Source: Gemmatales bacterium
GTDB lineage: Bacteria > Planctomycetota > Planctomycetia > Gemmatales > HRBIN36
DNA: 64,000 nucleotides
Direction: 5' to 3'
Assembly: GCA_041640595.1 (NCBI GenBank)
Contig: JBEPZY010000004.1
Location: 294,014 to 358,013 of the forward strand
The translations under genes and the position numbers were made by a program. Of this stretch, positions 26,961 through 48,769 are shown in pieces. Under the pieces are notes generated by a model, which was not told where the DNA came from, did no database searches, and worked only from the letters and a program-made list of their open reading frames with translations. How positions within the stretch are numbered: position 1 is the first letter of the stretch; each line of letters begins with the position of its first letter.

Positions 26961-27665
26961 ACCACGGCAGACTGACGCCGCAGTAGTGGCAGCCCCCGCC
27001 TGGCGGTTCCTCATGTCTTCTCGGCACCACGGCAGACTGACGCCCTCCACCGCTTCGACTGTCGCTGTGCCCCGGACACTATTCGATTAATTCGCCGTCA
27101 ACCAGTCAGATCACCGACCACGGCGGGCTGACGCCCGCCGCTCTCGGTCGCGTTCCCGGTAAAAGTCGCAGTTCCAGCGTAATCGCGTTTCGCAAACCAC
27201 GGCGGGCTGACGCCCGCCGCTCTTGCGAACGTGCGTTTGTTCATCGCAAAAATCGTCATTCTTCCAGCGGACGCTCGTTGTACCGGCGCCGAGGAGCGGG
27301 GGGCGTAAGCCCCCCGTGGAACACACTCCGCATACAAGCACGAAACGCCAAAATTCATTGGATTGCACTTGCAGATGCGGTTCCGAAAACCACGGCGGGC
27401 CGACGCCCGCCGCTCTTGAAAACGTGCGTTTGTGCAGCGCGAATGTCGCTTTTCACTCCGAACAAACGTCGTGCAACCAGGAGCGGCTGGCGTAAGCCAG
27501 CCGTGGTACGCTGACCCCGTTGCGAATGGGTTAGACCGCCACCTTCCACCTCCGGCGCGGCTTTGGCTTCGGCCATCCGTGTCGCGGTGACTCTGTTGCG
27601 AATCCGTTACACCGCCACCGCTGGCTGACGCCCGCCGCTCTTGTGAACGTGCGTTTGTGCAGCGC
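26961..27665. repeat. REP-like palindrome cluster (about 6 full copies plus 2 half copies 65 bp apart)
   Basis: Same hairpin family. Confidence 0.85.
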
Positions 27666-27733
27666 GAATGTCGTCTTTTTGGCATTGAAAGCCGATGGCA
27701 AGCGCGAAGGACGGTTTCTTCCACCGAACCAGT

Positions 27734-28777: not shown

Positions 28778-28983
28778 GGCTGGTTCACTCCTTCCAGATC
28801 CCTGGTCCGGTGTGAAATCGCCTTTCCGAATGGCACGGGGGCTGCCTCGATCCGCTGTGCCATCGGCAATTCGCAATTGCTCGCATCCTGGCCTTTTTGC
28901 ACGGCTCCTGGATTCACTGTTGCAAGCAGCACGACTCAAAAGGCCACATCGGTCGGCCGTGAAGAGGTCTTGCACGGCTCCTC

Positions 28984-29540
28984 GATCCATTGTGCGATCA
29001 GTGACGCTCCGATTCCAGAGTCTGGGCACCAGGCGAACAATCCGACTGGCGGTAGGCGGTTCCATTCCCCAATCAACGAGGCTCCGATTCCAAAGTCTGG
29101 TCAGCAGGCGAACAACGCGACTGGCGGTAGGCAGATCCATTCCCCAATCAGCGAGGCCCCGATTCCAGAGTCTGGGCAGCAAGCGAACAATCCGACTGGC
29201 GGTAGGCAGATCCATTCCCCAATCAACGAGGCCCGGAATCCAGAGTCTGGGCAGCAGGCGAACAATGCGACTGGCGGTAAGGAGATCCATTCCCCAATCA
29301 GCGAGGCCCGGATTCCAGAGTCTGGGCAGCAGGCGAACAATGCGACTGGCGGTAAGAGGATCCATTCCCCAATCAGCGAGGCTGGGATTCCAGAGTCTGG
29401 GCAGTAAGCGAACACCCCGGTCGGCGGTAGGCGGTTCCATTCCCCAATCAACGAGGCCCGGATTCCAGAGTCTGGGCAGCAGGCGAACAATGCGACTGGC
29501 GGTAGGCAGATCCATTCCCCAATCAGCGAGGCCCGGATTC
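28984..29540. repeat. 75 bp tandem repeat, about 7.4 copies
   Basis: Unit starting GATTCCAGAGTCTGGGCAGCAGGCGAAC at 29011, 29086, 29161, 29236, 29311, 29386 and 29461. Confidence 0.95.
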
Positions 29541-29609
29541 GAGACTCTCCTATGTCCGCCGTTCTTTCTGAGCGTTCCGCGTTTGGTGCGCCAGCCCGGC
29601 ACCGTGCAA

Positions 29610-29996
29610 CCAGGAGCGGGGGGCGTAAGTCCCCCGTGGTGAACGTAGTCGAGTCCGCAGATGAATATGCATGTGTGCTGGGCGCGTTCCCGGACGCAGC
29701 GATGTTCCGGTCGAACTTGCAGCTGGAATACCCATAATTCGCCCAGCGCTCGCATTCCCGACCAAGAGCGGGGCGGCGTAAGCCCCCGTGGTATCGCTGG
29801 ACGCGATGGCAACGGTGATCGGCCCACATACTGCCGGCGGTTTTCCGAGCAATCGCCCTCGTGTCTGCGTAAACGTGTCTGCCGAACCACGGCGGGCTCA
29901 CGGGCGCCGCTCTTGGTGGTATTCATTTCCCGGTAAAAGTCGCAGTTCCACCGTTATCGCGTTTCGCAATCCACGGCGGGCTCACGCCCGCCGCTG
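29610..29996. repeat. REP-like palindrome cluster (4 copies)
   Basis: Same family; internal sequence similar to 31632-31810 and, inverted, to 63800-64000. Confidence 0.85.
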
Positions 29997-30099
29997 CTAG
30001 TAGTGTCGTGTCGGCGTGGAGGCTGGCAAAATCGGATTGCGAGCGACGCCGATCCTGACTTCGTCGCAGCTGCCGGATAGACTAAACGTGGATTCTCGC

Positions 30100-30762
30100 A
30101 TGGCCGAGCCTTTGCCTTCTGATGCTGGTCGCTCCGAATCCGCGGAACAGGACCTGGAGTTGTTGCACCAGGCCCGCCAGGGAAATTTCGCGGCTTTCGA
30201 GGCCCTGGTGCATCGCTTATTGCCGCGGGTAAGCGGTATGGCTCGCCGAATCCTCGGACCCGGCCCCGACGCCGAGGAGGTTACTCAGGAAACTTTCTTG
30301 AGCCTCCTGGAGCACCTGGATCAGTTTCGTGGAGACTCCTCGGTGGCGACCTGGGTTCTGCGCATTGCCACGAACCACGCCCTGCAGGTTTTGCGGAAAC
30401 GACGCGGTTTGACCGTTGTCCCCCTGGAAGTAACCGCACCCGACCAGGACAGCGGGGACACTCCTTTGCCACATCCGGATTACATTGCCCAGTGGCGCGA
30501 TAACCCCGAAGATTTGGCCCAGCAAGCCGAAGTTCGCCAAATCCTGGAGCAAGCCCTGGCGGAACTGGATGAGAAGTACCGCATCGTCTTTGTGCTCCGC
30601 GACATCGAAGGCTTTTCGGTCAAAGAGACGGCCGAAATGCTCGGGCTGAGCGAGGCCAACGTCAAGGTGCGATTATTGCGTGCCCGATTACAATTACGCG
30701 AACGGCTAACCCGCATATTCGGCGACGAGGCGACCCGCGTCTGGCCCAGCCATGCTCACTGA
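30100..30762 (+). CDS. ECF RNA polymerase sigma factor
   Basis: AFEALV, DAEEVTQETF, FRGDSSVATWVLRIATN, FVLRDIEGFSVKETAEMLGLSEANVKVRLLRAR. Confidence 0.92.
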   Translation: MAEPLPSDAGRSESAEQDLELLHQARQGNFAAFEALVHRLLPRVSGMARRILGPGPDAEEVTQETFLSLLEHLDQFRGDSSVATWVLRIATNHALQVLRKRRGLTVVPLEVTAPDQDSGDTPLPHPDYIAQWRDNPEDLAQQAEVRQILEQALAELDEKYRIVFVLRDIEGFSVKETAEMLGLSEANVKVRLLRARLQLRERLTRIFGDEATRVWPSHAH

Positions 30763-30774
30763 CGCCCCGACCGG

Positions 30775-30801
30775 TGTAACCTCCCCGCGGGATAACGCAT
30801 C
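30775..30801 (+). promoter_or_regulatory. Candidate ECF promoter TGTAAC-N15-CGCATC
   Basis: Same -35 hexamer and spacing as the site at 31112. Confidence 0.5.
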
Positions 30802-30831
30802 CATACAGGAAACCCGGGCGAGCTTCCGATC

Positions 30832-31092
30832 ATGACCTGCGAAGAACTGCTCCAGCTGCTCAACGAATACGTAGATGGCACGCTCGACCTGTCACTGGCG
30901 GAATGTCAGCAGTTTGCCGAGCATCTGGCCCAGTGCAATCCGTGTCAGGTCGTGGTGGACAATATCCGCAAAACCATTCGGCTGTATCGTGCCGGCGAGC
31001 CCTTTCCGATGCCGCCGGAGTTTGAGGCTCGGTTGCTTCAGGCGTTGCGCGAACGCTGGAAGGCCAAATTTCCCGACACCGTCAGCAGTTGA
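30832..31092 (+). CDS. Zinc-binding (zf-HC2) anti-sigma factor
   Basis: MTCEE...EHLAQCNPC HxxxCxxC motif immediately after the ECF sigma gene. Confidence 0.88.
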   Translation: MTCEELLQLLNEYVDGTLDLSLAECQQFAEHLAQCNPCQVVVDNIRKTIRLYRAGEPFPMPPEFEARLLQALRERWKAKFPDTVSS

Positions 31093-31111
31093 GCCAAATC
31101 CGCGCCAGGTC

Positions 31112-31138
31112 TGTAACTTTTGCCCGCCCCACCGAACT
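31112..31138 (+). promoter_or_regulatory. Candidate ECF promoter TGTAAC-N15-CGAACT
   Basis: Upstream of the small TGA-containing gene; matches the motif at 30775. Confidence 0.55.
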
Positions 31139-31207
31139 AACAATTAAGGCAGACCCAAACAACCTGGCAGACGATGATCCGCCATGCGACCGATCAAGGA
31201 ATCCGCT

Positions 31208-31492
31208 ATGGAACTGCTCATTTTTGCCGCCATCATCGGGCTGTGGTTGATTTTGCAAATCTGGGTGTTGCCCAAACTGGGCGTACCGACGTGACTGGGT
31301 GGTGCCTGCCGTCCGAGTTCGGACGAATCGCCCTTATCCATCCAACCAGGCGTTGACGAGCATAACCGCGACCCACGCTCCAAAGGCCGTGTATCCGTCG
31401 GACGGGGCATGGGCAAGCATAACGATCCACACCCCGGCGATGTACCCGCTTCGCCTTCCGAACAGCGCAAGCAGCAACCGGAACTGCATTGA
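31208..31492 (+). CDS. Small membrane protein, candidate selenoprotein (in-frame TGA 31292-31294); 28 aa if the TGA is a stop
   Basis: AAGGA RBS; MELLIFAAIIGLWLILQIWVLPKLGVPT-TGA-LGGAC...; hairpin CGTCCG-AGTT-CGGACG 15 nt after the TGA. Confidence 0.65.
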
Positions 31493-31614
31493 TGGGATAT
31501 ACAGGTTAGGCCTGGTTGACTTCCGAACAGCGCAAGCAGCAACCGGAACCCGCTCGCAAACAAGAAACACTCTCGAACGAATAAGCCCCGAACAGCGTGA
31601 GCAACAGCCGAAAC
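31455..31614. repeat. CRISPR-like mini-array: three 30 bp repeats with two 35 bp unique spacers
   Basis: CTTCCGAACAGCGCAAGCAGCAACCGGAAC identical at 31455 and 31520, degenerate at 31585. Confidence 0.85.
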
Positions 31615-31631
31615 GCCACCGGCCCGTGCAT

Positions 31632-31911
31632 CAAGAGCGGGGGGCGTAAGCCGCCGTGGTGAACGTATCGAGTCCGCAGATGCAATACGCATGTGTGCTG
31701 GGTGCGTTCCCGAACGCAGCCATGTTCCGGTGGAACTTGCAGCTGGAATACGCATGATTCCCCTAGCGCTCGCATTCCCGACCTCGAGCGGGGGGCGTAA
31801 GCCCCCCTGTGGGATGCACTCAGCACGCGAGATTCAAACGCCGAAATTCATCGCATTGCACTTGCAGATGCGGTCCGGAAAACCACGGCGGGCTGACGAT
31901 CGCCGCTCTTG
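31632..31911. repeat. REP-like palindrome cluster (3 copies)
   Basis: Same family. Confidence 0.8.
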
Positions 31912-32194
31912 ACGGTGTGCGGTTGGTGCTGGGAGGTACGGTTCTAACGGAACGACGCTTCGTTTGTTACGCTCGTGCAGACGCACGCCAGTCAGCCCGC
32001 GAAATCTGTCGCAGTTCGAGCGGAATCGCGTTTCGTTTGCCCCGAAAGATTGTCGCAGTAACCCGGTTGCTCGGTTTTTGCTCGCAATTCTCGGGCAATT
32101 GCGTTTCGGATGTCACGGGGGCAGTCGGTCAGGGTCTGGGTCGGGGCGATGTTAGTCGTCGCCCGAACCGCGGTACCTCTTAGCCTGTCGGAGA

Positions 32195-34954
32195 TCACTT
32201 CAGGTCGCCGATGTACCAGACCCGCACCGTCTTGTCACGGCTTCCCGAAACGACGTACTTGCCGTCGGGGGCTACCGCGATGCTCAAGACCGCCGACTGG
32301 TGCCCCTCGAACTTCCGCACTTGTTCACCCGTCGCCAAGTTCCACAAACGCACCGTGCCGTCCCAGCCTCCCGAAACGGCGTATTTGCCATCGGGCGTCA
32401 CCGCGACGCTATAAATCCCCCACTGATGGCCTTTGAACTGCCGGACTTCTTTCCCCGTCGCCAGCTCCCACAAACGCACCGTGTTGTCCCAGCTTCCCGA
32501 AACGACATACTTGCCATCGGGCGTCACCGCGACGCTACTGACCGTACTCTGGTGCCCCGTGAACCGCCGCACTTCTTGCCCGGTCGCCACGTCCCACAAA
32601 CGCACCGTGTCGTCATGGCTTCCCGAAACGACGTATTTGCCATCGGGCGTCACCGCGACGCTATTGACCCAATGCTTGTGCCCCGTGAACCGCCGCACTT
32701 CTTGCCCGGTCGCCACGTCCCACAAACGCATCGTTTTGTCCTGACTTCCCGAAACGGCGTATTTGCCATCGGGCGTCACCGCGACGCTATAAATCCCCCA
32801 CTGATGGCCTTTGAACTGCCGGACTTCTTTCCCCGTCGCCAGCTCCCACAAACGCACCATGTTGTCCCCGCTTCCCGAAACGACGTACTTGCCATCGGGC
32901 GTTACCGCGACGCTATTCACATAATCTTTTTGCGCAGCCAGCGGCTGTATTAACGGGCCGGTTATCATGTCGACAACCAAAATTTCGCCAACATTGTTAT
33001 TGTTAGCATTGAGATGACCATTAACAGCTGCGACAAAACAATGCTGCTTCGGCAGGAAAGCTAGAGAGTACACCTCGCGGGGAAGGTTGATCGGCTTACC
33101 GTGAAGGAGCTTGCCCAGTAATGGCGGGGTCTCTGCCCTTAAAGCGGTTATCTCTTTTCTAAGCGTCGTTAAGTCTTCTCTGAGTTTCTGCAGGTCTTCG
33201 CTAAGTTTGGCGGCTTCCGCCTGGCTGAGCTTCTTTTCCAGAGCTTTGATGTTAGCCTCGATCTGACTGGCCTGAGTATCAAGGGCATGGTATTTTTGCT
33301 CGAATTCGCGTCTTTGGTTCTTGAAATGCTCCTCCAGTTCCTTGCGTTGTTCCACCAACTTGTCCTGCAGTTTGTGTAGCTCGTCCATGAGCTTTTCCGC
33401 GTTAGCAGCGGCATCTTTTAACCTCTCCTCCCGAAGCGAAAGCTGACGGTCGGCCTGTTGCAGAAGCATAAGTTCCGTGGCCAGCGACAAGCCCTGAAAC
33501 TCTAGCGGAGGCCATTCGTACAGAGCGTAGCCGATAGTGAATTGAACCTGTTTGATGTCGGCCTGGAATTGCTCTATCCGTTTCGTTATGGAATTTTGCT
33601 CAAGACTAATGGCAACCACAGGCAGGTTGCCCTCGAAATGATCTTTCAGTTCATCGAAAGCTCGCTGGAGAGAATCAATGTGTTCCTTGCGCTGGTTAGC
33701 ATCTAAGCGTTGCTCTTGTTGTTCGCCCTGGGCGTTTGCCTTCCCAAACAAGAAGGACACAGGGCGCAGCCTCAGTTCGGCATCCACTTGCCATTTTTCT
33801 TTATTGCCCTGCTGTCGCGCTTCCCAGTTGTCGAGCAGCTGGCTGAGGTGCTGTTCGCGGGCTTTTCTTTCAGACTGTGCCAGTTTCTTGATCTGCCCTA
33901 GGGTTGCGGTGATGCCGGCCTGGTTGCCAAGTATGAGGTAAACTACCGTCTTTTCGTCAAGGTCGCGCAACTTTACCTGCTCGAAGGCGCGGTCGAGCAA
34001 TGTGCTCAGTAAACGTTCAAGCGTCTCCCGGTCCTTGGAGTCTTGCCTCCGACGAATTTCTATTTGCACCCACTGAGTAACCAATTCGAGTAAATCCACT
34101 GTTTGAACGGCTCCGCCTCCAGCGCTCAAAGGGAGTTGAGCCAAAAATTGCGGTTGTCCGAGGCTTTTCTGCGAGGGTGCGATCGTGTTTTGCAAGTTAA
34201 CTATGCTTTTCTTGAACATGGTCAGACTGGCTTCGATATTGACCAGGTCGAAGCGGGATCGGAACGGGCCCTGAATCGCAATGTAAATGTCTTTGAGGCA
34301 AATTGGTTCTTGGTCGCTTGTAAGCGCCGGGAGGTATTCCAGGACTATCCGTTCCTCTTCGCCTAGCTCCCTGGAGAGGCAGGCTTTGGAGAGACGAATT
34401 GGAGGACAGAGCGGCTGGTCGGGTTGTCCTCCGCCAGGACCTCCGCCGCGTGCTGCAAACAGGGATAGGTAAAATCCGTCTTCGCGAAGGTCAGGCTCCA
34501 CAACCTTGACCGCTTTCACGCCCTGCCGCTCTTGCAGCCTTTTACGGAGCTGGTTGATTATTTCGTCGCAGGTCTTCTCCGTGGCCAAGAGGTTCCTAAT
34601 GCAAAATTTGATTTCGGGCGGCTGGCCATTGATGAGTGTGGGTATTTTCTCGGTGAGTTCGAGACGACGCCATTGAGCCCCGTCGCGGATTTGCGGTTTC
34701 TCAGCCACCCATACCGGAAACAGGACCACAGTATCGTTTGTGAGGCAGTAAGGGATGTGGACCTTGTATTCGGTGTTCCCCAAAGGCAGCGGGACATTAC
34801 GAAGCAGTTTGATGGAAGCCGAAAGGGGCACGATGTTGTCGGCCTGGTTGTTCCCTGCCTGGTTCGGGTTTTGGGCGAAACCGAGGGCGAAAATGAGTAA
34901 GCTCAAGGCACCGGCCGAAACAAACACAGGCGATGCATGGCGACGCATGGTCAT
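32195..34954 (-). CDS. Exported protein: unknown N-terminal domain, coiled coil, C-terminal WD40 propeller
   Basis: Signal-like N-terminus, heptad-rich middle, repeats GH....SVAVTPDGKYVVSGS.D.TVRLW; GGAGGA upstream. Confidence 0.88.
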   Translation of the reverse strand: MTMRRHASPVFVSAGALSLLIFALGFAQNPNQAGNNQADNIVPLSASIKLLRNVPLPLGNTEYKVHIPYCLTNDTVVLFPVWVAEKPQIRDGAQWRRLELTEKIPTLINGQPPEIKFCIRNLLATEKTCDEIINQLRKRLQERQGVKAVKVVEPDLREDGFYLSLFAARGGGPGGGQPDQPLCPPIRLSKACLSRELGEEERIVLEYLPALTSDQEPICLKDIYIAIQGPFRSRFDLVNIEASLTMFKKSIVNLQNTIAPSQKSLGQPQFLAQLPLSAGGGAVQTVDLLELVTQWVQIEIRRRQDSKDRETLERLLSTLLDRAFEQVKLRDLDEKTVVYLILGNQAGITATLGQIKKLAQSERKAREQHLSQLLDNWEARQQGNKEKWQVDAELRLRPVSFLFGKANAQGEQQEQRLDANQRKEHIDSLQRAFDELKDHFEGNLPVVAISLEQNSITKRIEQFQADIKQVQFTIGYALYEWPPLEFQGLSLATELMLLQQADRQLSLREERLKDAAANAEKLMDELHKLQDKLVEQRKELEEHFKNQRREFEQKYHALDTQASQIEANIKALEKKLSQAEAAKLSEDLQKLREDLTTLRKEITALRAETPPLLGKLLHGKPINLPREVYSLAFLPKQHCFVAAVNGHLNANNNNVGEILVVDMITGPLIQPLAAQKDYVNSVAVTPDGKYVVSGSGDNMVRLWELATGKEVRQFKGHQWGIYSVAVTPDGKYAVSGSQDKTMRLWDVATGQEVRRFTGHKHWVNSVAVTPDGKYVVSGSHDDTVRLWDVATGQEVRRFTGHQSTVSSVAVTPDGKYVVSGSWDNTVRLWELATGKEVRQFKGHQWGIYSVAVTPDGKYAVSGGWDGTVRLWNLATGEQVRKFEGHQSAVLSIAVAPDGKYVVSGSRDKTVRVWYIGDLK

Positions 34955-47488: not shown

Positions 47489-48769
47489 TTAGCGAAAGCG
47501 GCGAAATACCGCGGCAGCACAGTGCCCGCGTTCTCCGATGGCGACTTTCAGAAAATAATCGCTTCGCGGTTCGTGCCAGCGACCGGCCAGAACGTGAATC
47601 GGACAGTCGGGATCCGGTTCGCGGTAATTGCGTGTCGGAGGCAGCAAACCACGCTGAAAAGCGAGCAGACTGATGGCGAGTTCAGCCACAGAGCCGGCCG
47701 CACCGAGATTGCCCCAGTAACTCTTGGCGGCAAAGACGGGTACACGGGGATTGTTCCGGCCAAAGATACGTGCCAGCCCGGCCGACTCCCAGATGTCATC
47801 CTGCCGCGTGCTGTAACCGTGAGCGTTGATATGGTCAATGTCTTCGGGACTGATGCCGGCCCGCTGCAATGCCTGGCCAATCACCTCCGCCAGGACCTCT
47901 CCGCTTCGCCGCGGATCGAAACCGCACGCGAAACCGACGATTTCGGCGTAAATCCTGGCGCCCCGTTGCTGGGCATGTTTTTCGGTCTCCAGAACCAGTA
48001 TGGCTGAGCCTTCCCCGGGTACCAGGCCGTCGCGGTCACGGTCGAACGGACGGCAGGCTTCTTCAGGGGCCTGGTTGCGTCGGCTCACCGGCGCAAACAA
48101 ACAGAGCCGGGCCATGCTCAACGGATTGAGCCGACTGTCGCCACCGCCCGTGAGCATAACATCAGCCAGTCCCCGCCGCAAGATGTGCCATGCCTCGCCC
48201 AGCGCCAGCAGGGATGAGACGTCGCCTTGCGTGATGGAATTATTGGGTCCCTGGGCGTTGTGCAGGATGGAAACATGGCAGGCCAGCATATTGGGCAGGT
48301 ACTTGAGCATCCACAGCGGAGGCATGGCGGCCAGACCGTCGCGCCCCCACTTTTCCATATCCACGAAATACGGCTGGCCGTTGGTGCATAACCGTGCGGC
48401 TGGGCCGAGTTCTTCCAGTTCACTGGCGATCAGTCCGGCTCCGTAAATCACGCCGAACCGTGTCGGATCGAGTCGAGCCGGATCGAGCCCGGCATCCTGC
48501 AGGGCCAGGTTGGTAGCACACACGGCCAGTTGAATTGGCCGCGACATTACTTTCAGCGCCTTGCGATCCTTGCGATCGACGAAATCCTTTGCGTCGAAGT
48601 CGGGGATATACCCGGCAAACTGAGTGGACAGGGCGCTGGGGTCAAACAGCTCAATCCGGCGGACACCACTGGTTCCGGCTTGGAGATTCTGCCAGATCTG
48701 CTCCTGCCGCCAGCCCAGCGGGGTCAGCAAACCCAGGCCGCTTATGACAATTTTCTGCTCCATGCTCAT
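47489..48769 (-). CDS. Ketosynthase-like protein lacking the catalytic Cys (chain-length-factor-like)
   Basis: FabF-fold motifs, but TQGDVSS replaces TACASS and KSYWGNL replaces KSxxGHL. Confidence 0.85.
   Translation of the reverse strand: MSMEQKIVISGLGLLTPLGWRQEQIWQNLQAGTSGVRRIELFDPSALSTQFAGYIPDFDAKDFVDRKDRKALKVMSRPIQLAVCATNLALQDAGLDPARLDPTRFGVIYGAGLIASELEELGPAARLCTNGQPYFVDMEKWGRDGLAAMPPLWMLKYLPNMLACHVSILHNAQGPNNSITQGDVSSLLALGEAWHILRRGLADVMLTGGGDSRLNPLSMARLCLFAPVSRRNQAPEEACRPFDRDRDGLVPGEGSAILVLETEKHAQQRGARIYAEIVGFACGFDPRRSGEVLAEVIGQALQRAGISPEDIDHINAHGYSTRQDDIWESAGLARIFGRNNPRVPVFAAKSYWGNLGAAGSVAELAISLLAFQRGLLPPTRNYREPDPDCPIHVLAGRWHEPRSDYFLKVAIGERGHCAAAVFRRFR

Follow-up and report, generated by a model that had tools for sequence, protein, structure and literature searches.

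The fdhF gene of E. coli is the paradigm of a bacterial gene with an intragenic selenocysteine insertion sequence (SECIS) that is read by SelB. The hallmark of a bacterial SECIS is a stem-loop immediately 3' of the UGA codon, with a small apical loop that carries a guanosine, as described in PMC1088965. The present analysis concerns a 64,000-nt stretch of a Gemmatales bacterium (Planctomycetota; GenBank assembly GCA_041640595.1, contig JBEPZY010000004.1, positions 294,014 to 358,013 of the forward strand), hereafter the window, in whose coordinates all positions are given. A gene at 31208-31492 (+) of the window had been put forward in an earlier note, made from the letters without database searches, as a small membrane selenoprotein candidate; on comparative sequence evidence it is most probably a genuine gene whose product is a very small single-pass membrane selenoprotein, a reading given a probability of about 0.9. 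Like genes decoded through SelB and a SECIS, it has an in-frame UGA and, starting about 11-17 nt further on, a stem-loop whose small apical loop contains G (often GU), according to the description in PMC1088965. Homologues with cysteine (Cys) at the UGA position also exist, and selA, selB, selC and selD are present in the host genome. It is unlike known bacterial selenoproteins in its U-x4-C motif (U, selenocysteine, Sec), where UxxC or CxxU is usual, in being tiny with a single transmembrane helix, and in having no Pfam or NCBIfam model.

A review of the prokaryotic selenoproteome from May 2026 lists 119 families or subfamilies with their motifs and model accessions (PMC13188914), and the nearest of its catalogue entries by motif is TsoA, the 'LULAXC motif selenoprotein' (NF045695), which is encoded in a three-selenoprotein operon with a rhodanese-like selenoprotein and the ArsR-type regulator TsoR. 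As catalogued there, U-L-A-x-C resembles the U-L/M-S/G-G-x-C found here in the Leu after the Sec, and the linkage to a rhodanese and an ArsR-type regulator recurs at loci of the small gene, where the ArsR neighbour reaches a weak 38 bits on the TsoR model (cut-off 115); the spacing differs, being U-x3-C in TsoA against U-x4-C here. The TsoA model (144 positions, cut-off 170 bits) had no match in the host genome at E <= 10, and none among the 20 + 47 family members scanned. Among eukaryotic proteins, SELENOK and SELENOS are single-pass endoplasmic reticulum membrane selenoproteins with one Sec and a disordered cytosolic tail rich in Pro, Gly and charged residues, and the Sec of SELENOS can form a selenenylsulfide with a nearby Cys. 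The likeness to them is one of architecture only, a single transmembrane helix with a disordered tail (in the structural model of the homologue P0006, described below); they differ from the present protein in that its Sec lies 7 residues past the helix and not at the extreme C-terminus, it is unrelated to them in sequence (no Pfam match), and its decoding would be of the bacterial SelB/SECIS kind.

The frame from ATG 31208 encodes MELLIFAAIIGLWLILQIWVLPKLGVPT ahead of TGA 31292-31294, within which the hydrophobic stretch LLIFAAIIGLWLILQIWVL is followed by PKLGVPT. After the TGA it continues with CTG GGT GGT GCC TGC (LGGAC) and, with the TGA read as U, ends at TGA 31490-31492. The start codon and ribosome-binding site proposed earlier (ATG 31208, with AAGGAA at 31196-31201), and the single hydrophobic helix followed by VLPKLGVPT-TGA-LGGAC, were recovered by direct reading. 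The read-through gene is indeed missing from the program-made list of open reading frames (ORFs), where a 36-aa ORF at 31184..31294 is all that is given; ATG 31184 is an alternative upstream start. The gene and its elements are as follows.

31208..31492 (+): predicted selenoprotein gene, 94 codons, Sec as codon 29, terminal TGA 31490-31492 (translation with TGA=U)
31196..31201 (+): Shine-Dalgarno-like AAGGAA, 6 nt 5' of the ATG; purine-rich stretches stand at the same place in relatives
31211..31276 (+): predicted transmembrane helix, about residues 2-23, from the AlphaFold2 model of a Cys homologue
31292..31294 (+): UGA, predicted selenocysteine codon, residue 29, from column conservation in relatives
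31307..31309 (+): partner Cys codon TGC, residue 34 (U-x4-C), invariant in three family alignments
31310..31325 (+): putative SECIS hairpin, 6-bp stem, loop AGUU, position kept in relatives
31326..31489 (+): low-complexity, non-conserved C-terminal tail, with no alignment to relatives past the hairpin and coil in the homologue model

At the nucleotide level the window resembles same-genus relatives over 31232-31323 only, a stretch that starts within the helix and stops where the hairpin ends, and beyond the hairpin neither the length nor the sequence of the tail is conserved in any relative. The last 12 codons fall in copy 1 (31455-31484) of a local tandem repeat at 31455-31614. The earlier suggestion that the present C-terminus may be secondary is thus a reasonable one, the tail being unconserved in relatives and ending in a local repeat, and it keeps the standing of a possibility.

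Conservation of the TGA was examined in three sets of loci. In 60 same-order genomes searched in six frames with the read-through protein (E <= 1e-4), 26 places in 24 genomes matched, each with a TGA inside the match, and two of the genomes with the TGA form (G006 and G027) are single-contig assemblies; the 19 best loci and the window make up the same-order alignment of 20 sequences. The TGA stands at one alignment column in all 20. The column 28 codons 5' of it holds ATG or GTG in 17 sequences, the other three having an ATG 1 or 3 codons earlier, and the next stop comes 25-65 codons past it. W19, L21, P22, G25, T28, U29, C34 and P36 are invariant in this alignment and W13, L16, Q17, G32 and S38 nearly so, and in the nucleotide alignment the codons of the Gly (+3) and the Cys (+5) after the TGA vary at the third position. 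An even phylum sample of 300 genomes gave 28 with a match, 27 of which have U at the motif; the 28th (locus L064) was rejected as a family member. From public species genomes 241 family loci were confirmed, and among the best 80 of these 47 have TGA and 33 have TGC or TGT at the same column. Most public loci are from Planctomycetota (Pirellulales, Planctomycetaceae, Isosphaeraceae, Thermoguttaceae). The TGA form is found as well in metagenome-assembled genomes (MAGs) labelled Deltaproteobacteria, Geopsychrobacter, Syntrophobacteraceae, Desulfuromonadaceae and Thermodesulfobacteriota, and the Cys form in MAGs labelled Myxococcales and Omnitrophota as well as in the isolate Lacipirellula limnantheis I41 (locus L074). 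Across the three family alignments G32 is nearly invariant and C34 invariant. The earlier note had looked to homologues with TGA or Cys at this column, and to conserved residues downstream of it, for support of its proposal, and to TAA or TAG at the column for its refutation. TGA was found in 20/20, 27/27 and 47/80 loci of the three sets and Cys in the remaining 33/80, Gly+3 and Cys+5 are kept in frame past the TGA, and no homologue examined has TAA or TAG there.

The predicted hairpin was likewise found where it had been placed: CGTCCG (31310-31315), AGTT (31316-31319) and CGGACG (31320-31325) begin exactly 15 nt after the TGA, and the loop G is at position 31317. Its significance comes from comparison with relatives only, because the single sequence is indistinguishable from chance. 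A hairpin stands at the same place in 20/20 same-order loci, one of them shifted, in two pairing registers: the first, of the CCG-AGUU-CGG type, comprises 8 sequences with 44/48 cells paired (9-28/48 in slid controls), and the second, of the GCCGC-GGUC-GCGGC type, 11 sequences with 63/77 cells paired (21-46/77 in slid controls). One stem pair varies as TA, GC or AT within the order. Across the phylum the stems are of wholly different sequence (e.g. TGCTCCGC/GCGGAGCG, ATGCGA/TCGCAT and GTGCTCTCC/GGAGGGCAC), start 11-16 nt after the UGA in most loci, and have loops such as GGA, GUC, GGUC and AGUU. Under a rule that asks for a stem of at least 5 bp, a spacer of 11-17 nt, a loop of 3-6 nt and a G in the first two loop bases, a hairpin follows 18/20 same-order UGAs and 20/27 phylum-sample UGAs, the background, taken at every other position and at the remaining TGA triplets of these loci, being 10-12%. 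The cleanest control for the hairpin is the comparison of TGA with Cys forms: under the same rule it is found in 42/47 TGA forms vs 7/33 Cys forms among the best 80 public loci. The residues after Cys34 are conserved in TGA forms (x-P-x-S-x-P in the same order, A-V-S/D-P-R/H elsewhere) and unconserved in Cys forms, and since this conservation is confined to TGA forms it is best explained by RNA structure. By these comparisons the hairpin behaves as a SECIS. Two Cys forms, L109 and L123, both on public MAG contigs, keep a SECIS-like hairpin like their TGA relatives, that of L109 being the hairpin of L135 (GTGCGGT-GTC-ACCGCAC); these hairpins suggest a recent Sec-to-Cys conversion.

The same data bear on the simplest alternative, in which the TGA is an ordinary stop, the product a hydrophobic micropeptide of 28 or 36 residues, and the hairpin a terminator, an attenuator or a repeat-derived palindrome. 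It agrees with gene callers and public records, which end the protein at the TGA (as 29-61-aa 'hypothetical proteins'), with the palindromic repeats in which the downstream DNA is rich, and with the lack of significance of the hairpin by itself; it does not account for a Gly+3 and Cys+5 kept in frame with third-position variation, for TGC/TGT homologues that continue with the same motif while none examined has TAA or TAG at the column, or for a hairpin that follows the TGA forms (42/47 vs 7/33). The hairpin also has no U tract, and a scan for sigma-70 promoters and terminators called none on the + strand near the small gene. Termination at this TGA is therefore considered extremely improbable.

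The machinery that the selenoprotein reading needs is present in the host genome (4.45 Mb, 42 contigs). A tRNA-Sec was found with 75.7 bits on RF01852 and is called tRNA-SeC, anticodon tca, by ARAGORN; selB (386.8 bits, cut-off 242) is directly adjoined by selA (568 bits), and selD (390 bits) is of the Sec type, with an in-frame TGA within ...CAG-U-AGK. This selD, at C1:725715-726641 (-) (locus L066), is a selenoprotein gene itself, and its hairpin of 9 bp with loop GUG starts about 25 nt past its UGA. SelB was found in 55/60 sampled same-order genomes and in 23/24 of those carrying the small-protein family; among the 5 genomes without a SelB match, 4 have no family match at E <= 1e-4. A second Sec candidate in the window, which the earlier note had cited in support of Sec usage, was not identified: a crude scan returned 27 places with a TGA and a hairpin, none convincing, and the most ORF-like of the candidates, the TGA at 48005, matches nothing in Pfam and is apparently in a wrong frame. 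The use of Sec by this genome follows from the presence of tRNA-Sec, SelA, SelB and SelD, independently of a second candidate.

The UGA is read as a Sec codon because of its conservation, its alternation with Cys, the in-frame conservation 3' of it, the TGA-linked hairpin and the full Sec machinery, taken together. Several observations weigh against this reading. The hairpin is short (6 bp), and when 31285-31360 is folded alone the result is not significant (z = -1.49; 13/200 shuffles fold at least as well), and an Rfam search of 31150-31700 at a permissive threshold gave no match. Covariation within the order is modest, as most stem pairs are invariant and two registers are required. The hairpin rule fails for 2/20, 7/27 and 5/47 TGA forms in the three sets, and one genome with a TGA form (G007, 91% complete, 470 contigs) is without an identified SelB. 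Some loci may be shared between the three sets (order, phylum, public), and those of related genomes do not count as independent observations.

In the mechanism proposed, the ribosome would start at ATG 31208 and make a transmembrane helix of about 22 residues; the hairpin at 31310-31325, inside the coding sequence, would recruit SelB with Sec-tRNA(Sec) to the UGA at 31292-31294, where selenocysteine would be inserted instead of termination. The product would carry L-P-x-x-G-V-x-T-U-x-x-G-x-C right after the helix, followed by a disordered, non-conserved tail. At the membrane, the selenol/thiol pair might then form a reversible selenenylsulfide or accept either sulfane sulfur or a soft electrophile, and the small protein would serve the reactive-sulfur and thiol-stress systems encoded beside it. 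This explanation as a whole is considered very probable, its functional part much less so (see below).

The natural Cys homologue P0006, which shares 67% identity over the core, was modelled with AlphaFold2; the model has a helix at residues 2-23 with a predicted local distance difference test score (pLDDT) above 90 and is coil outside it (pLDDT 54-69). Conserved residues of the helix are W13, L16, Q17, W19, L21 and P22, and proteins of the family are about 55-95 residues long, with Sec as residue 29 of 54-94, 7 residues past the helix. Ahead of the helix the N-terminus has 2-5 residues and no net positive charge (ME, MD, MKD, MSE...), and positive residues come after it (LP-K/R, and N-R-W in many relatives). 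By the positive-inside rule the positively charged flank of a membrane helix faces the cytoplasm. Because the positive charges follow the helix, the N-terminus would lie outside and U-x4-C at the cytoplasmic face; charge distribution is the whole basis of this topology, which tells against it.

A family profile found 829 protein representatives at E <= 0.001 among 1.84 billion. In 46/50 representatives read, Cys stands at the Sec column, in W-x-x-L-N/Q-x-W-V-L-P-x-x-G-x-x-T-C-M-S-G-x-C; the other four have W (two), R and S there, each a single base change from TGA. Cys is also found at the column in 8/11 full-length database hits. Full-length entries with L, R, W or S at the column (P0003, P0005, P0007, P0123, P0132, P0157, P0159) were seen as well, each residue one base away from TGA, and they may stem from genes called with another code (TGA=W), from errors of sequencing or from genuine variation. 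In a word-indexed search, most of the 120 matches listed are of 29-61 residues and cover the first 28 query residues only; 10/10 short matches read stop exactly at ...T, before the TGA, and those that are named are each a 'hypothetical protein' of Gemmataceae or Gemmatales MAGs. Since the short entries end at ...T, public annotation evidently cuts the TGA forms at the TGA.

No described family was matched. Pfam and NCBIfam searches of the 20 + 47 members at E <= 1 gave chance-level matches to unrelated membrane families only (best E 0.025-0.21), with none to MerT-type mercuric transport (PF02411) or to other catalogued membrane selenoproteins that have Pfam/NCBIfam models. A profile search of PDB sequences returned chance matches to a G-protein-coupled receptor helix only (E >= 0.28), and the nearest cluster in the ESM Atlas is a 'hypothetical protein' of Planctomycetota with score 0.84, below the level that counts. 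Fused or longer forms of the family were not found at E <= 0.001, which is weak evidence; the 208-aa representative P0228, which runs on into thioredoxin sequence, may be a read-through of two adjacent genes and is counted as adjacency only. All 119 entries of the PMC13188914 table are without a U-x4-C motif and without a small single-pass membrane family, and 'Planctomycet', 'transmembrane' and 'membrane protein' are absent from the text of that review. Word searches of the literature turned up no description of the family, with the proviso that Haft & Tolstoy 2025 or the candidate lists of Deng et al. 2026 might contain it. Table S9 of PMC4807772 has an entry for a 'hypothetical' Sec candidate, with its Cys homologue in Rhodopirellula, that is not identifiable from the table and might be a member. 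Because no catalogue, model or literature match was found, the gene is filed as a new family; it lies within the known class of bacterial SECIS-decoded selenoproteins and has an unusual architecture.

This has consequences for annotation, as hundreds of genes in Planctomycetota and Desulfobacterota-type MAGs are cut to 28-60-residue 'hypothetical proteins' or missed altogether, truncations that a profile combined with a UGA rule would repair. With this family the selenoprotein catalogue would gain a new architecture, of about 55-95 residues, single-pass and with U-x4-C directly at the membrane; the catalogued prokaryotic selenoproteins are mostly soluble thioredoxin-fold enzymes. It would also be a clean natural system in which to study the advantage of Sec over Cys, because both forms coexist in close relatives and some Cys forms keep the hairpin.

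Gene neighbourhoods were compared at 127 family loci (80 with 5-kb flanks and 47 with 1.5-kb flanks only) by clustering the open frames, 110 codons or longer, that lie within 3.6 kb, and naming the clusters by Pfam and NCBIfam. Rhodanese-domain neighbours are found at 47/127 loci, among them fusions of a metallo-beta-lactamase with a double rhodanese, of the persulfide-dioxygenase type. Other recurrent neighbours are an ArsR/SmtB-type regulator (26/127), a TauE/SafE exporter (23/127; on the same strand, and usually with its start about 80-250 nt past the Sec/Cys codon), a resistance-nodulation-division (RND) adaptor (22/127), a methyltransferase (19/127), thioredoxin (18/127), an extracytoplasmic function (ECF) sigma factor with a zf-HC2 anti-sigma factor (17/127, window included), AcrB (16/127), a flavoprotein most like type III sulfide:quinone reductase (SQR; 9/127) and a cytochrome-bd-subunit-I-like protein (8/127). 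At least one of rhodanese, ArsR, TauE, thioredoxin and SQR is present at 66/127 loci, and at 52/80 of those with long flanks. Two gene orders recur, the first being ArsR - dioxygenase/rhodanese - rhodanese - small gene - TauE - SQR - methyltransferase and the second thioredoxin or ECF sigma/anti-sigma - small gene - HlyD - AcrB. The small gene also heads an unexplained conserved set at eight loci (L098, L102, L104, L110, L123, L132, L141, L143), where it is followed by a cytochrome-bd-subunit-I-like protein and two large proteins ('unk18' and 'unk21') with no Pfam or NCBIfam match.

The first order resembles two described operons for sulfide detoxification that ArsR-type persulfide sensors control: the bigR operon of Xylella and Agrobacterium, with the sulfur transferase/dioxygenase Blh (PMC5823870), and the cst operon of S. 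aureus, with CstB (PMC12934615). The resemblance lies in the ArsR-type regulator, the metallo-beta-lactamase-rhodanese, the TauE-type exporter and the SQR-like flavoprotein; no small membrane protein or selenoprotein is named in the abstracts of those two papers. The resemblance to bigR is also limited by model scores below cut-off, 44.8 bits on the BigR model (cut-off 155) and 41.4 bits on the Blh model (625).

The repeated sulfur and thiol neighbours give a testable hypothesis, in which the protein takes part, as a new component at the membrane, in defence against reactive sulfur and thiol stress. A function of this kind at the membrane is put forward tentatively, at somewhat less than an even chance. 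It is read solely from gene neighbourhoods, a basis that counts against it, as do five further points: none of the five sulfur/thiol neighbours is present at 61/127 loci; the several unrelated membrane systems beside the gene argue against one dedicated partner; the window has neither a transporter nor a rhodanese 3' of the gene, where there is repeat-rich DNA and a convergent WD40 gene; in same-genus relatives the small gene sits between a sulfatase and hisF; and the neighbour counts overstate the support, because related genomes do not give independent loci. A more specific version, rather unlikely as it stands, would make the protein the founding member of a multi-phylum family in which U/C-x4-C serves as a membrane-face sulfane-sulfur acceptor, a selenol-based persulfide relay linking SQR, rhodanese and persulfide dioxygenase to TauE or RND exporters. 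If true, this relay would be a component so far missing from bacterial sulfide and reactive-sulfur detoxification, and it would put selenium to direct use in sulfur-stress defence.

Some of the same neighbours could be taken to mean that the protein is a real selenoprotein whose U-x4-C binds a soft metal (Cu, Hg, Zn, Cd, Ag), or that it is an accessory or regulatory subunit of the RND HlyD-AcrB or TauE systems. An RND adaptor at 22/127 loci and AcrB at 16/127 are in keeping with this, as is an adaptor representative that matches the CzcB/NccB metal-efflux adaptor model, below cut-off. The best NCBIfam name of the regulator is 'metalloregulator ArsR/SmtB family', and regulators of this family are classically metal sensors. 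The conserved Trp and Gln/Asn in the helix suggest specific helix-helix packing. A small single-helix partner of an RND pump is known in AcrZ; the likeness to it, in gene adjacency only, is that of a tiny single-pass membrane protein encoded with an RND pump (16-22/127 loci), and the small gene and the pump are probably co-regulated there. The small protein differs from AcrZ in having no sequence similarity to it, in its redox-type U/C-x4-C motif, and in being found also with TauE, with cytochrome-bd-like genes or alone. Several metal-handling selenoprotein families appear in the table of PMC13188914. Set against a metal or pump role are the commonest neighbours, which are sulfur enzymes (rhodanese 47, TauE 23, thioredoxin 18 and SQR-like 9 loci), and the fact that the gene adjoins at least four unrelated membrane systems, and in many cases no such system, so that a stand-alone function fits better than a dedicated subunit. 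Such a role is possible, though unlikely.

In the window the small gene is of the second type of order, following an ECF sigma/anti-sigma pair.

30016..30762 (+): ECF-type sigma factor gene (Pfam Sigma70_r2, Sigma70_r4_2, Sigma70_ECF), start codon unsettled
30832..31092 (+): zinc anti-sigma gene (zf-HC2, H-x3-C-x2-C; Pfam zf-HC2 E 1.9e-8), 86 residues, soluble

The anti-sigma translation contains the motif HLAQCNPC and no hydrophobic segment. This arrangement raises the question of a chiefly sensory or regulatory role, either as a redox or selenium input to ECF sigma/anti-sigma or ArsR, or as an upstream frame that tunes the operon through UGA decoding. The gene often heads operons, directly before a TauE, HlyD-AcrB or cytochrome-bd-like gene, and adjoins regulators (ArsR at 26 loci, ECF sigma/zf-HC2 at 17, the window among them). 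One RNA-library contig spans the sigma gene, the anti-sigma gene and the start of the small gene, although a contig across genes does not prove a single transcript. The residues of helix and motif are strongly conserved between phyla, as would be unusual in a leader peptide, and Cys forms are common (33/80) and keep the same residues without a UGA, so that UGA-dependent control cannot be the basic function of the family; a role mainly in sensing is thus regarded as quite improbable.

It was also considered whether the gene is a decaying remnant in this genome, parted from its operon by rearrangement and repeat insertion and no longer functional. The lack of a transporter or rhodanese 3' of it, the entry of its tail into a unique tandem repeat and elements resembling repetitive extragenic palindromic (REP) sequences, and a synteny unlike that of same-genus relatives would suit such a history. 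An intact start codon, helix, UGA, Cys and hairpin would not, nor would the recurrence of the ECF sigma/anti-sigma linkage at 17 loci, the synonymous strain variants of the core and the RNA-library contigs that cover the gene; decay is accordingly very unlikely. Contigs from four hot-spring metatranscriptome libraries cover 30038-31281, 31069-31484, 31210-31428, 31170-31299 and 31270-31445. These contigs may derive from DNA and show no transcript ends, strand or level, and as evidence of expression their cover is weak; they do place this stretch, TGA included, in other strains. The strain variants in the conserved core (31282 C>T and 31285 A>G) are synonymous, and no variants between the TGA and the hairpin are listed in the RNA-library contigs.

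The DNA around the gene is rich in repeats. The one into which the tail runs is as follows.

31455..31614 (+): local tandem repeat, 30-nt unit at 65-nt spacing, two exact copies and one degenerate (73%)

The 30-nt unit was found nowhere else in the genome. A CRISPR-like array at 31455-31614 was rejected, given two exact copies and one degenerate copy of a unit absent elsewhere in the genome, and the repeat is probably a local duplication. Short repeat families recur in three intergenic regions around the gene, at 27117-27680, 29600-30008, 31630-31946 and 32008-32108, with members such as ACCACGGCGGGCTGACGCCCGCCGCTCTTG and the palindrome GAGCGGGGGGCGTAAGCCCCCC; they look like REP elements or miniature inverted-repeat transposable elements (MITEs). 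RNA-library contigs pile up on these intergenic repeats and reach a maximum depth of 11433 at 31844-31924. A tandem array at 28909-29623, 5' of the sigma factor gene, has a 75-nt period and at least 7 copies (the central ones 86-89% alike) and is open in several frames on both strands. On the other side of the small gene, 32195-34954 (-) encodes a protein of 919 residues, which begins with a long coiled-coil-like part and ends in a WD40 propeller encoded by near-repeats of 126 nt.

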